Assembly (NCBI GenBank): GCA_963701185.1
Contig: OY969569.1
Span: 667,548 to 731,547, forward strand
Source of the DNA: Candidatus Gottesmanbacteria bacterium
GTDB taxonomy: Bacteria > Patescibacteriota > Microgenomatia > UBA10105 > UBA927
DNA length: 64,000 bases
Reading direction: 5' to 3'
Shown piece after piece: positions 9,934 to 22,047 of the stretch. Position numbers and translations under genes: made by a program. The number at the start of each line of letters is the position of its first letter. Position 1 is the stretch's first letter. Under the pieces are notes generated by a model. It was given only the letters and a program-made list of their open reading frames with translations. It had not been told where the DNA came from and made no database searches.

Positions 9934-12900
9934 ATGACAGTTGCTGTTCAAAGAAAAAAGTATACTATAAGTCAAGCCGCGAAGCTCGCTGGCGTTTCCC
10001 GCCGTACCATTCAACGCTGGATAACCGCGAAAAAACTTCCTGCTTCTGTTGATTCCTATGGCACCCATCTTATTTCTTCTGAGGCTTTGGCCAGCCTCAC
10101 TCCACTTGTGGCAGCAACTGCCACGCCACTACCCGATTCCGTTTTTGGCGTATTAACTGCCGCCAAAGCGGCTAGCAAACTCGGCGTGTCCAAACGGACA
10201 TTGCTTCGCTGGGAAAAAGCAGGGTTAATAACCAGTAAACGCACGGTTGGCGGAGTGAGACGGTATGATCCTGCAGATCTGGAGAAACTCGCCTCATCGC
10301 GAACAATCTATCAGCGGGGGCCGGAAGTCCTGCTTCTTAAAGATGTCGACCTGCTCCCGGACGTTCCAATACTAAAAGAGGTTAATCTACTCCCTGACAT
10401 CCCCATACTTGCGGCGCCCCCCATCGTCCCAATCGTCCCAATCGTTCCTCCCATCATCCCTACACCAATCCCCGTTCCTATTCCTCCTGTGGTTCCTCCG
10501 ATTGCCGCTGTGCCCATGGCACCACCACAAACCGTCATTATACCTGAAGGAGCGCCTCCGCCAATGTCACCTGTTCCGCACAACTTTGCGTCGCCTTTAG
10601 CATTAGGCATTATTTTACTTCTGGCGCTCTTAGGAACAGGGTCGTTGATTTTACAAATTATCGGTATCCGCAATGGCGCCCAACAGCAAAGCGCACAAAC
10701 TCCGTGGGCAGTAGGTACCAGTGGTGTTATCGGACAAAACCTTTTAGTAACCGGTGGCAGCGGTTCTCAGGGTCAGCAAGGAGTCATTGGTGCCAGCGGT
10801 CCGACAGGAACGACCGGTGAAAAGGGTCCGACTGGGGCGACCGGAGAATTTGGCCCAACCGGGCCGACCGGCGGCATCGGACTTTGGGGCCCTACAGGAG
10901 GAACAGGTTATGCGGGAAGTTCCGGTCAAACTGGTCCGACAGGGGCCACTGGTAAAACGGGAACTGCAGGAGCCACGGGATCAAACGGACCCACAGGGAC
11001 GACGGGAGCAACCGGGAGTGCCGGTTCAACAGGTGCCACAGGAGCCAATGGCCCCACCGGATCAACCGGAGCCACCGGGATAGCCGGACCGACGGGGTCA
11101 ACGGGAGGGACAGGAGCACAAGGTCCTACCGGACCCACCGGTATAGGGGGAACCGGAGGAGGAGGATCGAGTGGGCCGACAGGAGCAACCGGCAGTACGG
11201 GCTCAACAGGAGCCACGGGAGATAATGGCCCAACCGGATCAACCGGAACAACCGGAGCAACCGGGAGTGCCGGTTCAACAGGCGCAACAGGAGCCAATGG
11301 CCCCACCGGATCAACCGGAACAACCGGAGCAACCGGGAGTGCCGGTTCAACAGGTGCCACAGGAGCCAATGGCCCCACCGGATCAACCGGAGCCACCGGG
11401 ATAGCCGGACCGACGGGGTCAACGGGAGGGACAGGAGCACAAGGTCCTACCGGACCCACCGGTATAGGGGGAACCGGAGGAGGAGGATCGAGTGGGCCGA
11501 CAGGAGCAACCGGCAGTACGGGCTCAACAGGAGCCACGGGAGATAATGGCCCAACCGGATCAACCGGAACAACAGGAGCAACCGGAAGTGCCGGTTCAAC
11601 AGGCGCAACAGGAGCCAATGGCCCCACCGGATCAACCGGAACAACCGGAGCAACCGGGGCCAATGGCCCCACCGGGAGTACCGGTTCAACAGGCGCCACG
11701 GGAGGAGCCGGACCGACGGGGTCAACCGGGGCAACCGGAGCGACAGGCGTGACAGGCCCTACTGGAGGAACCGGTGTTGCCGGACCGACAGGGTCAACAG
11801 GTGCCACAGGAGCCAATGGCCCCACAGGCTCAACCGGAGCCACCGGGATAGCCGGACCGACGGGGGCAACAGGAGCCAATGGCCCCACAGGCTCAACCGG
11901 AGCGACCGGGATAGCCGGGCCGACGGGGGCAACGGGAGCCAATGGCCCCACAGGCTCAACCGGAGCGACTGGAAGTGTTGGTTCAACAGGCGCAACAGGA
12001 GCCAATGGCCCCACCGGCGCAACGGGAGCGACCGGAGATGCCGGAACTACGGGAGCCACAGGGGGTAATGGCCCAACCGGCAGTACGGGCTCAACAGGAG
12101 CCACGGGAGATAATGGCCCAACCGGCAGTACGGGCTCAACAGGAGCCACGGGAGATAATGGCCCAACCGGCAGTACGGGCTCAACAGGAGCCACGGGAGA
12201 TAATGGCCCAACCGGCAGTACGGGCTCAACAGGAGCCACGGGAGCCATTGGAAAAACCGGACCGACCGGAAGTACCGGTTCAACAGGTGCCACAGGAGCC
12301 AATGGCCCCACCGGATCAACCGGAGCCACCGGGATAGCCGGACCGACGGGGTCAACGGGAGGGACAGGAGCACAAGGTCCTACCGGACCCACCGGTATAG
12401 GGGGAACCGGAGGAGGAGGATCGAGTGGGCCGACAGGAGCAACCGGCAGTACGGGCTCAACCGGAGCCACGGGAGCTAATGGTGATTATGGACCTACCGG
12501 CAGTACCGGTGCTACAGGTACTACCGGTGCCACCGGTTATTATGGACCAACAGGGAGTACCGGTGCCACCGGTTATTATGGACCAACAGGATCCACTGGG
12601 AGCACCGGCGCGACGGGTAGTGTCGGCTCGTCAGGACCTACAGGTTCAAGTGGAGCAATAGGAACAACCGGGGCGACTGGAGCCAATGGACCGACGGGGT
12701 CAACGGGTGTTGCCGGAACTACAGGAGCCAATGGCCCCACCGGATCAACCGGAGCCACCGGGATAGCCGGACCGACGGGGTCAACGGGAGGGACAGGAGC
12801 ACAAGGTCCTACCGGACCCACCGGTATAGGGGGAACCGGAGGAGGAGGATCGAGTGGGCCGACAGGAGCAACCGGCAGTACGGGAGGTAACGGACCTACT

Positions 12901-21900: not shown

Positions 21901-22047
21901 AATAGCTTTATCTATCTCACACCAGTCACAAACCCGGGCAACCACGTCCTCTATGTCATAACGAAAGAGCCGGGTGTCGGATTCACCGTCGGCATATCAA
22001 CTTTATATAATCAGGACATGCAGTTTAATTGGTGGATTGTCAACTAG
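9934..22047 (+). CDS. giant (~4,040 aa) membrane-anchored collagen-like triple-helix repeat protein with two N-terminal HTH motifs and a globular C-terminal region
   Basis: Single uninterrupted ORF (ORF track 9817..22047). Two excisionase/MerR-type HTH segments ([40 protein letters not shown]), a Pro-rich stretch and TM helix [21 protein letters not shown]. About 900 Gly-X-Y triplets ([15 protein letters not shown] / [15 protein letters not shown] units). Non-repetitive C-terminus with a CBM4/9-like stretch [12 protein letters not shown]. Confidence 0.85.
10730..18830 (+). repeat. coding tandem repeat array (45-nt / 15-aa Gly-X-Y units, ~8.1 kb) inside the giant gene
   Basis: Near-identical GGN-CCN-ACN-GGN-AGT-ACN-GGA-GCN-ACN-GGA... 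units repeated hundreds of times. All frames on both strands stay open across it, giving spurious antisense ORFs. Confidence 0.9.
15488..15962 (+). other. ~160-codon segment of the collagen array read out of the Gly-X-Y frame (compensating indels)
   Basis: Translation switches from [10 protein letters not shown]... to [10 protein letters not shown]... at ~15490 and back at ~15960. The nucleotide sequence in between is the same repeat. Indels relative to neighbouring repeat copies at 15489 (gcatcc to gcacc), 15505-15510 and 15966 (gggaagtac to gggaatac). Confidence 0.6.

Follow-up and report, generated by a model that had tools for sequence, protein, structure and literature searches.

A giant collagen-like protein of a Candidatus Gottesmanbacteria-like bacterium with a predicted membrane-tethered pair of winged helix-turn-helix domains and a tail-fibre-like end

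The collagen-like proteins described in bacteria, among them BclA, Scl1/Scl2, Lcl, and the Pasteuria fibres, carry a Gly-X-Y array of variable repeat number and a distal globular non-collagen domain, and are presumed to form trimeric surface filaments that serve in adhesion or as a nap. The arrays of BclA and the Scl proteins comprise tens to ~90 triplets. Here we analyse a gene, hereafter the fibre gene, whose product shares these traits and lies in a 64,000-nt stretch of contig OY969569.1 (the window; positions 667,548 to 731,547, forward strand). The gene is genuine and chromosomal and comes from a Candidatus Gottesmanbacteria-like bacterium of the Microgenomates group in the Candidate Phyla Radiation (CPR). 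Candidatus Gottesmanbacteria have tiny cells and occur in groundwater and soil. GPT-type, Thr-rich triplets are common to BclA and the fibre protein, whose array of ~900 triplets is 10 to 50 times longer than those of BclA and Scl. In contrast to these proteins, it has an N-terminal transmembrane (TM) anchor and not an LPXTG or exosporium-targeting signal, its distal end is tail-fibre-like with a carbohydrate-binding module (CBM) fold and not a C1q/TNF-like or Scl V domain, and it alone carries a DNA-binding-type module that is predicted to be cytoplasmic.

Other parts of the protein recall other systems. Its two winged helix-turn-helix (wHTH) domains, HTH1 and HTH2, resemble BldC, Xis, and RacA; HTH2 is 45% identical to BldC over ~50 residues, with the same fold and most contacts kept, and RacA shows that DNA can be attached to the cell envelope. 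BldC consists of 68 residues, and RacA has a coiled coil that binds DivIVA. These proteins are small and soluble, whereas the fibre protein fuses two wHTH domains to a TM helix and a predicted extracellular part of 3,800 amino acids (aa). TraN of pIP501 (PDB 4P0Y) is a precedent for a covalent wHTH tandem that binds double-stranded DNA, but is a small soluble conjugation protein without a TM helix or fibre. An analogous topology, with a cytoplasmic domain, one TM helix, and an extracytoplasmic ligand-binding domain, is found in ToxR, CadC, TcpP, and RsgI. RsgI proteins sense polysaccharides through CBMs. ToxR has an OmpR-type fold and RsgI an anti-sigma domain, whereas the fold here is of the MerR/excisionase type; moreover, the outer domains of ToxR and RsgI are compact sensors of 100-300 aa and not a sub-micrometre fibre. 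Phage fibres (endosialidase S74, phi29 gp12 G2, Klebsiella K1 lyase) have in common with the fibre protein a K1-lyase_C domain, a putative G2-like segment assigned through a relative, and S74 domains in its paralogues and a neighbour, but the fibre protein is chromosomal, syntenic, and membrane-anchored, and has no relatives on the viral contigs scanned. The fibre protein is outside the Scl, BclA, classical MerR, BldC, ToxR, and RsgI families, lacking a defining feature of each. It combines a collagen-like adhesin, a phage-style fibre tip, and the topology of a membrane-tethered regulator, and its family is widespread and undescribed.

How CPR/Patescibacteria find, hold, and exploit their partners is largely obscure, and what is known of their surface machinery consists mostly of type IV pili. 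The family is a candidate that lends itself to sequence searches, often a giant anchored fibre with a carbohydrate-binding-type tip and often present in several copies per genome; the fibre studied here would exceed the length of the cell. We found no description of the family in the literature searched, in agreement with an earlier reading of the DNA letters made without database searches (the sequence-only reading), which called the gene the best candidate for an undescribed surface or attachment system. Nor did the literature searched describe DNA-binding domains on the inner end of a bacterial adhesin. If such domains bind DNA in vivo, they would form a direct physical link from an extracellular filament to the nucleoid or to gene expression.

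The fibre gene and the parts of its product are the following, with models predicted by AlphaFold2 (AF2), their confidence given as the predicted local distance difference test (pLDDT), and structural matches obtained with Foldseek.

9934..22047, plus strand: giant fibre gene, 4,037 codons and a stop; open reading frame (ORF) without stops, its ATG matching the starts of the homologues P0001-P0003
9961..10092, plus strand: winged HTH 1 (aa 10-53); Pfam HTH_17, RacA 5I41, pLDDT 87-90, Foldseek match to RacA-DNA
10156..10305, plus strand: winged HTH 2 (aa 75-124), BldC-like; Pfam MerR/MerR_1, BldC 6AMK, Foldseek match to BldC
10339..10596, plus strand: Pro-rich spacer, predicted cytoplasmic (aa 136-221); 31% Pro over aa 136-225, disordered in the AF2 model
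10597..10668, plus strand: predicted single TM helix (aa 222-245); Kyte-Doolittle maximum 2.56, AF2 helices 221-233 and 236-248
10753..18831, plus strand: Gly-X-Y array, 906 triplets with the shifted block; Pfam Collagen
18832..22044, plus strand: non-repetitive C-terminus (1,071 aa), the family hallmark; 102 homologues, 208 genomic loci
19324..19611, plus strand: most conserved C-terminal domain (DPxYTI...); near-invariant alignment columns, pLDDT 80-92, no family match
20179..20616, plus strand: CBM-fold beta-sandwich; pLDDT 85-94, Foldseek matches to CBM16, CBM4-2, CBM4, and CBM22
20614..20970, plus strand: Peptidase_G2-related segment; aligns with the region of the relative P0095 that matches PF11962, low AF2 confidence
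21838..22044, plus strand: K1-lyase_C beta-sandwich, ending in FNWWIVN; PF24146 E 1e-10, pLDDT ~90

A stop-free frame on the plus strand extends from a TTG at 9817 or an ATG at 9934 to position 22047. In an alignment of the N-terminal region, the three homologues start at the residue equivalent to the ATG at 9934, which gives a product of 4,037 aa. The order of its domains is two BldC/excisionase-type wHTH domains, a Pro-rich tether, a TM helix, ~900 Gly-X-Y triplets, and a tail-fibre-like end of 1,071 aa. The same order of HTH, TM helix, collagen, and C-terminus is found in intact ORFs of independent assemblies (L031, P0108, P0109, P0111, P0121, and P0123), and the L031 locus is contiguous, with no gap and no frame change. 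The G+C content is 0.60-0.66 within the array, owing to its Gly, Pro, Ala, and Thr codons, versus 0.47-0.49 in the flanks. These results uphold several claims of the sequence-only reading: a single stop-free 12-kb ORF of ~4,040 aa, the presence of all these parts on one polypeptide, and a non-repetitive C-terminus of ~1,070 aa. Its worry that the true start might follow the TM helix can be dismissed, as the start precedes the HTH pair in the homologue alignment, and its guess of a CPR bacterium agrees with the closest genomic relative, a Candidatus Gottesmanbacteria chromosome with 75% identity over the C-terminal region.

The excisionase/MerR-type HTH pair proposed for the first ~120 aa is recovered both by profile search and in the predicted folds. 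Pfam matches two HTH_17/MerR stretches (aa 10-53, E 5e-19; aa 75-124, E 1e-18), HTH_17 (PF12728) scoring 68.6 bits against a cut-off of 27 over the two. The excisionase model TIGR01764 reaches 49.8 bits against a cut-off of 28.8, which identifies an excisionase-type wHTH. AF2 predicts the beta-alpha-alpha-beta-beta-alpha winged-helix fold twice, with pLDDT values of 80-90. In a PDB search the sequence of HTH1 matches RacA 5I41 (E 0.03), and its model fits the RacA-DNA complex with a TM-score of 0.68 and a root mean square deviation (rmsd) of 2.2 Å. HTH2 matches the BldC-DNA complexes 6AMK (E 4e-8) and 6AMA (E 1e-7), and its model aligns with BldC at TM-scores of 0.73-0.80, an rmsd of 1.4-1.5 Å, and 45% identity. 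The match of the N-terminal model to TraN 4P0Y covers both domains, weakly (E 2e-3, rmsd 13 Å).

The DNA contacts of BldC are Lys26, Thr27, Thr29, Arg30, Trp31, Lys33, His46, Arg47, and Arg48, with Arg30 as the base-reading arginine (PMC5859096). We transferred this contact list to HTH2 through a sequence alignment with 6AMK. HTH2 is identical to BldC at Thr27, Arg30, Trp31, Lys33, Arg47, and Arg48, and Lys26 is replaced by Arg, so that seven of the nine contacts are identical or conservatively swapped; Thr29 is replaced by Leu and His46 by Val. The BldC family model NF033787 scores 49.4 bits, below its cut-off of 77. Judged by this sub-threshold score and by its fusion into a 4,037-aa protein, HTH2 is a relative of BldC and not a member of the BldC family. 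The coiled-coil dimerisation helix and the effector-binding domain of MerR are absent, the Pfam MerR_1 match being limited to the HTH part and the disordered Pro-rich spacer following HTH2. There is no match to the OmpR-type Trans_reg_C domain in the fibre protein, in line with a fold of the MerR/excisionase type, and no Pfam match to the RsgI_N anti-sigma domain; among the neighbours scanned by domain search, no sigma factor gene was found.

The HTH cores are near-invariant in four aligned homologues with 49-75% overall identity, while the spacer varies. Furthermore, the first 135 aa contain 22 Lys/Arg residues and have a net charge of +14. The best argument comes from the relatives described below, in which two unrelated DNA-binding folds, both paired, interchange at this one position; this argues that DNA binding is a selected property. 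We consider it moderately probable that the N-terminus binds DNA. Repeats upstream of the gene are unconvincing as operators for the HTH pair, as merely short two-copy matches were found.

The segment at aa ~222-245 is the sole strong hydrophobic segment of the N-terminal region, and both hydropathy and AF2 agree with the earlier proposal of a Pro-rich spacer followed by a single TM helix. The helix is highly conserved, with a centre that bears Gly, Ser, and Thr (LLGTGSL), and is almost unchanged in relatives with a different cytoplasmic domain, such as P0043/L004. An ETxIIPxG motif near the end of the spacer is likewise conserved among relatives. No signal peptide is present, and an HTH domain occupies the N-terminus. 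In relatives, the residues before the helix are rich in Lys/Arg (for example, MRRF, KSRW, YKKLL, KKYHEY, and RNRVKNINYRR). This family-wide pattern, together with the implausibility of exporting a basic folded domain of 220 aa without a signal, favours a single-pass topology with the N-terminus in the cytoplasm and the C-terminus outside. The N-in orientation proposed by the sequence-only reading fits these observations, including the charge of +14.

Three 300-aa pieces of the array were searched, each of which matches Pfam Collagen (PF01391; E 9e-37, 1e-31, and 8e-34). It holds 856 in-frame triplets in six runs. Four of the run boundaries are one-residue breaks (Gly-X-Gly) at one recurring motif, and the fifth is a 153-aa out-of-frame stretch, which is discussed below; the array is thus not the strict one that had been claimed. 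The number of triplets, 906 with the shifted block, may be off by some 10%. With a rise of 0.286 nm per residue, the predicted length is ~0.78 µm (906 x 3 x 0.286 nm), or ~0.73 µm for the in-frame triplets alone, which is close to the earlier estimate of ~900 triplets at residues ~300-3,000 and ~0.75 µm.

Ninety-five units fit the pattern GPTG[SA]TGATG..G.[SN], and the commonest exact 15-aa peptide occurs in 44 copies. At the DNA level these 44 identical units take 35 forms, on average 77% identical, and the 45- and 90-nt units are only 66-82% alike. When the 95 units are aligned, codon position 3 carries an entropy of 1.42 bits and positions 1 and 2 only 0.29 and 0.31 bits, the pattern expected from purifying selection on the plus-strand collagen frame. 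The scrambling of synonymous codons behind identical units argues that the array is translated and has long been maintained; one possible cause of it is selection against recombination-prone DNA identity. Two antisense ORFs in the array (989 and 969 aa) were rejected as non-coding and compositional, the variation lying at plus-strand third positions. Very long arrays are independently supported by other assemblies: the ortholog in the closed Gottesmanbacteria chromosome OY970230.1 (1,088,247 bp) has 786 + 236 triplets, and L016, from an isolate labelled as an Illumina assembly, has an intact 2,443-aa ORF with 434 triplets. The arrays of orthologues are built from different unit peptides.

For the C-terminal region, AF2 was run on the monomer with a 38-sequence alignment, which gave a mean pLDDT of 57 and three confident domains (residues 165-260, 450-595, and 1000-1071 of the region). 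The top 15 PDB hits of the CBM-fold domain in Foldseek are CBM16, CBM4-2, and CBM4 (E 1e-5 to 6e-5, target TM-scores 0.43-0.53), with CBM22 and CBM61 also among the leading matches; tailspike and central-fibre domains rank after these. The CBM4/9-like stretch that had been proposed stands at the level of fold (Foldseek E ~1e-5) and fails at the level of sequence, where CBM_4_9 (PF02018) matches with E 0.098 and 13.5 bits, below the cut-off of 25.9. The last 70 aa match K1-lyase_C (PF24146) over its full length (1-70/70; 42 bits versus a cut-off of 27). The G2-like segment is 32% identical to the Peptidase_G2 region of P0095 (E 4e-12), a transitive assignment, since a direct Pfam match is absent; it hints at an auto-processing assembly chaperone such as those of phage fibres. 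The fibre protein itself has no direct Pfam match to Peptidase_S74 or Peptidase_G2. Scans of the C-terminus against PHROG and NCBIfam gave no match, and a PDB sequence search returned only a chance match (histidinol dehydrogenase, E 0.01). No LPXTG sortase anchor is present, the protein terminating in FNWWIVN, and neither end has a Pfam or NCBIfam match to a C1q/TNF-like domain or an exosporium-targeting motif.

A search of the protein collection gave 102 homologues of the C-terminal region, and 208 stretches in species-representative genomes encode a relative. The named records belong to Gottesman-, Woese-, Roizman-, and Collierbacteria, the Microgenomates group, and the Patescibacteria group, to which further searches added Levybacteria. 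A profile of the N-terminal region (256 positions), searched against 1.84 billion representatives, retrieved 188 proteins at E <= 1e-10. We examined 26 long members of this set (852-5,310 aa), most of which have at least two HTH-matching stretches. The first hydrophobic helix lies 134-364 residues from the N-terminus in all 26, an F[ND]W[WF]-type C-terminal motif is present in 21, and five have collagen arrays (26-243 triplets). Across the relatives the stalk varies from 0 to ~1,020 triplets, or is beta-rich and non-collagen.

In many relatives the HTH pair is replaced by SAM-like core-binding domains of the XerC/D type, usually two, as in P0043, whereas P0012 has one. P0043 and P0012 retain the Pro-rich spacer and a near-identical TM helix with its juxtamembrane motif (SPLALG... 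in P0043), followed by a short stretch of collagen and by the family's C-terminal module, which ends in FNWFIVN or FNWWIIN. In P0095 and P0053, a pair of Xer-type domains is combined with a TM helix and a stalk that is not collagen. Peptidase_S74 is present in P0043, and P0095 matches Peptidase_G2 (PF11962). One Gottesmanbacteria genome encodes both an HTH-type member (P0108, 3,060 aa) and an Xer-type member (L043), ~100 kb apart. A cytoplasmic DNA-binding-type pair, a TM helix, a stalk, and a conserved C-terminal module thus form, as predicted from sequence, the common plan of a large family, shared by dozens of proteins of 850-5,310 aa. This architecture is the rule in Microgenomates-group genomes and not the oddity of one gene; the layout, earlier called very unusual, is so with respect to the literature and widespread in the sequences of this group. 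Family members are named integrase, integrase-resolvase, excisionase, XRE regulator, or hypothetical in databases, and the NCBIfam Scl/Lcl models match one relative, far below the cut-off.

Some genomes cluster several collagen-like genes: a second long array lies a few kb downstream of the family gene in L046 (14012-16900, 321 triplets) and L047 (14877-16697, 206 triplets). Beside P0108 in Gottesmanbacteria contig_74641, a predicted product of 12,315 residues (L086 1-3479, minus strand) runs off the locus.

The fibre gene lies in a cellular setting. Upstream are argG, argH, a split comEC, comEA, and leuS; downstream follow genes for an S74 tail-fibre-like protein, three pilin-like proteins, a polytopic TPR membrane protein, methyltransferases, and a GT2 enzyme, and further on for polytopic YfhO-like, DUF2298, and PMT_2 proteins, an M23 peptidase, rho, radA, and two tRNA-Ala. 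The closest downstream neighbours are these.

22098..24092, plus strand: membrane-anchored tail-fibre-like protein, 664 aa; Peptidase_S74 E 2e-15, PHROG tail fibre E 2e-24
24465..26224, minus strand: three pilin-like genes; N_methyl motif, homologues in 32-38 of 88 related loci
26121..28169, plus strand: polytopic membrane protein with C-terminal TPR; TPR matches and many hydrophobic segments, homologues in 26 of 88 loci

Synteny was counted over 88 related loci, many of them truncated; leuS is found in 22 and comEA in 13. A distant HTH-type relative, P0146, has the order leuS-fibre-x-comEA-comEC-x-argS, which indicates that the leuS/comEA/comEC linkage outlasts rearrangement. A C-terminal alignment scan found no relatives on 2.9 million viral contigs, and domain scans found no other phage genes in the window. 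Given the conserved synteny, the lack of viral relatives, and the lack of a PHROG match for the C-terminus, we conclude that the fibre gene is cellular and not viral.

The explanation that we favour overall, with moderate confidence, is an anchored surface fibre with a membrane-tethered DNA-binding end. Within it, a surface fibre or adhesin is the firmer part and is likely, while the role of the inner end as a tethered regulator or anchor is put forward tentatively. Three chains would form a collagen triple helix, a thin filament of ~0.75 µm with three TM anchors, and the C-terminal module may nucleate their trimerisation in the way of phage fibres. The CBM-fold tip would bind polysaccharide on a partner cell, a particle, or a surface; a host-tethering role is what we infer from this anatomy. 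The Thr-rich, Pro-poor, uncharged helix would probably be stabilised by O-glycosylation through the neighbouring glycosyltransferases. O-glycosylated collagens have precedents in BclA and the cuticle collagen of Riftia.

BldC binds direct repeats as head-to-tail dimers. The wHTH tandem may represent a covalent version of such a dimer on direct repeats in DNA, with no dimerisation needed, and a collagen trimer would display six wHTH domains. The pair would stay tethered to the membrane and couple the base of the fibre to the nucleoid or to specific promoters, in a ToxR-like manner, which may serve regulation or else a RacA-like mechanical or positional anchoring; the Pro-rich tether (~85 residues) could span up to ~25 nm if extended, and the nucleoid would be near the membrane in cells of ~0.25 µm. 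We rank tethered binding without release first, above a released regulator, because no protease partner is evident and the tether is long.

Several points weigh against this explanation. The equivalent of His46, which is essential for DNA binding by BldC (PMC5859096), has been replaced by Val in the fibre protein and by Ala in its three closest homologues, and the Arg-Arg wing is missing from HTH1. The protein's own positive-inside signal is weak, with His-Asn-Phe and no Lys/Arg before the helix and Arg after it. The main collagen unit has about one Pro per 15 residues and no charged residues, so that stabilising residues are unusually scarce and the helix may not fold without modification; the 153-aa block, if real, would break it. 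AF2 confidence is below 50 over about half of the C-terminal region, and although Foldseek matches this region to viral models at E 1e-8 to 1e-5, among them tail fibres, minor tail proteins, and phage proteins that contain S74 or collagen, the TM-scores are very low. Surface exposure, trimerisation, ligand binding, and DNA binding are all properties that we infer.

An extension of the proposal, which we regard as speculative and unlikely, is a trans-envelope coupling device peculiar to the ultra-small bacteria of the Microgenomates group: the fibre would capture a partner or polymer and the DNA-binding pair, BldC-like or Xer-like, would report the contact to the chromosome, or would position the chromosome and ComEA/ComEC/pilus uptake at the site. 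If this were true, the leuS-fibre-comEA-comEC-pilin linkage would reflect one attachment-and-acquisition module, and the length of the stalk and the cytoplasmic module would have diversified between lineages and paralogues. The linkage to comEA/comEC and pilins is at most a lead toward such a joint attachment-and-uptake module.

Among the rival explanations, a contact or force sensor of the Notch or RsgI type is improbable. Here, binding or pulling at the tip would lead to cleavage in the membrane, and the freed HTH pair would alter expression. A DNA-binding module, a TM helix, and a CBM-fold domain parallel the layout of RsgI, and S74 or G2 auto-cleaving chaperone domains occur in relatives. 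The Gly/Ser/Thr centre of the conserved TM helix is of the helix-destabilising type that substrates of intramembrane proteases need, but packing in a trimer explains its conservation equally well. The presence of several paralogues per genome with different cytoplasmic modules is what parallel sensory channels would show. However, domain scans of the window found no site-2 protease, rhomboid, or other candidate protease partner, no cleavage motif was identified, and a stalk of ~0.75 µm would be poor at transmitting conformational signals.

A comparably low probability attaches to a non-adhesive coat or spacer, that is, a hair-like nap, a sheath, or a BclA-like matrix that provides distance, protection, or biofilm. 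The triplet vocabulary is like that of BclA, whose repeat number varies by strain and sets the length of the nap, and array length also varies widely among the relatives; in addition, envelope glycosylation genes are close by. Against such a coat, the distal CBM-fold and tail-fibre-like domains resemble binding modules, the C-terminal module is the most conserved part of the family, and the gene is linked to pilins.

It is quite improbable that the HTH pair has ceased to bind DNA and now acts as a folded stopper or as a module for binding other proteins at the base of a plain anchored adhesin. The unretained His46 and the HTH1 wing without Arg-Arg would suit this, as would a generic role for a position at which two unrelated folds are interchangeable, and RodZ, an HTH-TM protein, binds MreB through its HTH. 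Yet both alternative modules are DNA-binding folds and both are paired, the equivalents of Arg30, Trp31, Lys33, Arg47, and Arg48 are retained in HTH2, and the near-invariant cores beside a variable linker and the net charge of +14 also speak for DNA binding.

Equally doubtful is an assembly artefact or a decaying gene, with the array mis-joined, of wrong length, or truly frameshifted. The question arises from one block of the array.

15493..15951, plus strand: collagen repeats out of frame (153 aa, basic and Arg/Tyr-rich in the ORF frame); frame comparison and Pfam

In Pfam, this block (459 nt) has no match in the ORF frame, whereas its +1 frame matches Collagen (E 1e-16). When it is compared with the sister repeats that resemble it most, three indels become apparent at its borders, a -1/+2 pair at its start and a -1 at its end. 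In the first, a T is missing from GCATCC. The second, 18 nt downstream, consists of two added bases, and the sequence there, GGAAGTCAACG, looks as if two synonymous ways of writing Gly-Ser-Thr, GGA-AGT-ACG and GGA-TCA-ACG, had been fused. The third (~15951) changes CC to C. It falls exactly where a near-identical duplication of ~950 nt (13960-14909 versus 15608-16556) goes from an offset of 1648 nt to one of 1647 nt, and it abuts a 546-nt exact repeat, the longest in the array. The ORF survives the block because that alternative frame has no stops, whereas the other alternative frame has one stop per unit. We read the 153-aa block as most likely an error of the consensus, made in the part of the array that was duplicated last and is for that reason the hardest.

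The relatives bear on both sides of the question. The ortholog on the closed chromosome OY970230.1 also has one frame change in its array, and the ORF there is interrupted by a stop. In addition, contigs of close relatives break within the array: the two closest C-terminal relatives lie at contig starts (contigs of 1.0 Mb and 0.73 Mb), and a third relative's contig terminates inside the array. Since arrays break many related assemblies, the family is systematically truncated in databases. Apart from the window and OY970230.1, all array frame changes in relatives are at scaffold gaps filled with runs of N, and contiguous arrays of 130-434 triplets have none; frame shifts as a general biological trait of these arrays were therefore rejected. 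In JGI contig Ga0619418_08766855 (L001), the closest N-terminal homologue, a TGA interrupts the collagen ORF (11260-11265), whereas the sister repeat, 135 nt further on, reads GGA at this place. A nonsense mutation, a variant in the population, or an error may account for this TGA; recoding of UGA as Gly was rejected, as the two repeats differ by a single G-to-T change and TGA stops 11 of 32 ordinary genes in the window.

Against an artefact, the divergence between units at the DNA level (66-82%, and 77% between identical peptides) makes most of the array uniquely placeable by an assembler. LeuRS, Rho, RadA, and ArgG are encoded in the same window by full-length ORFs with complete domain matches, and the N- and C-terminal parts of the fibre protein are under clear constraint. 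Furthermore, an artefact would alter the repeat count by ~10% at most and delete the 153-aa block.

A prophage or tailocin tail fibre is extremely improbable and effectively refuted, since the phage flavour of the K1-lyase_C domain, the G2-like segment, the adjacent S74 gene, the excisionase-type HTH domains, and the integrase-type N-terminal domains of relatives is set against 64 kb without other phage genes, a fixed site by leuS/comEA/comEC and pilins across several Microgenomates-group lineages, the absence of viral-contig relatives and of a PHROG match for the C-terminus, and an N-terminal TM anchor that is atypical of tail fibres.

The 664-aa neighbour starts 51 nt downstream of the fibre gene and has an N-terminal hydrophobic anchor, repeated GNVGIGTT motifs, and a coiled-coil-like C-terminal tail. 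The protein appears to be another phage-like surface fibre, shorter than the first, and its gene may be transcribed together with the fibre gene. Between leuS and the fibre gene lies a 1.1-kb AT-rich stretch (8819-9933) with no convincing ORF, unusually long as a non-coding stretch for a compact genome; the composition window 8001-10000 has a G+C of 0.39, versus 0.47-0.49 in the flanks. The stretch contains 17 promoter-like sites, versus 6.1 in shuffled sequences, and a perfect 11+11-nt palindrome (9433-9454).

The comEC gene is split in two (3856-5577, minus strand), one gene (4801-5577) carrying the Competence domain and the other (3856-4695) the metallo-beta-lactamase domain. We rejected this as a sign of poor assembly; the parts are in the same frame, but five stops between them indicate a true split rather than one sequencing indel. 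A second recurrent site of the family adjoins rho (L013, L015, L029, L031, L041, L048, L067, L072, L073, L084, and L086), with an M23/LysM peptidase also alongside in L086. The window itself has rho and its M23 peptidase gene side by side (48658-51314) and no fibre gene in between.

Two regions, 26121-33751 and 43201-56838, are dense in polytopic membrane proteins (multi-TM with TPR, multi-TM with NPCBM, YfhO-like, DUF2298, and PMT_2), several of them without a family. Together with the GT2 enzyme and three methyltransferases alongside, this cluster looks like a neighbourhood for envelope or protein glycosylation. A 449-aa protein (57565-58914, plus strand) combines DUF4434, a type I dockerin, and an FG-GAP-like repeat, and its dockerin implies a cohesin-type surface assembly. 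Finally, at 47703-47851 on the plus strand, only 3 nt separate two tRNA-Ala genes, which have the anticodons CGC and GGC.

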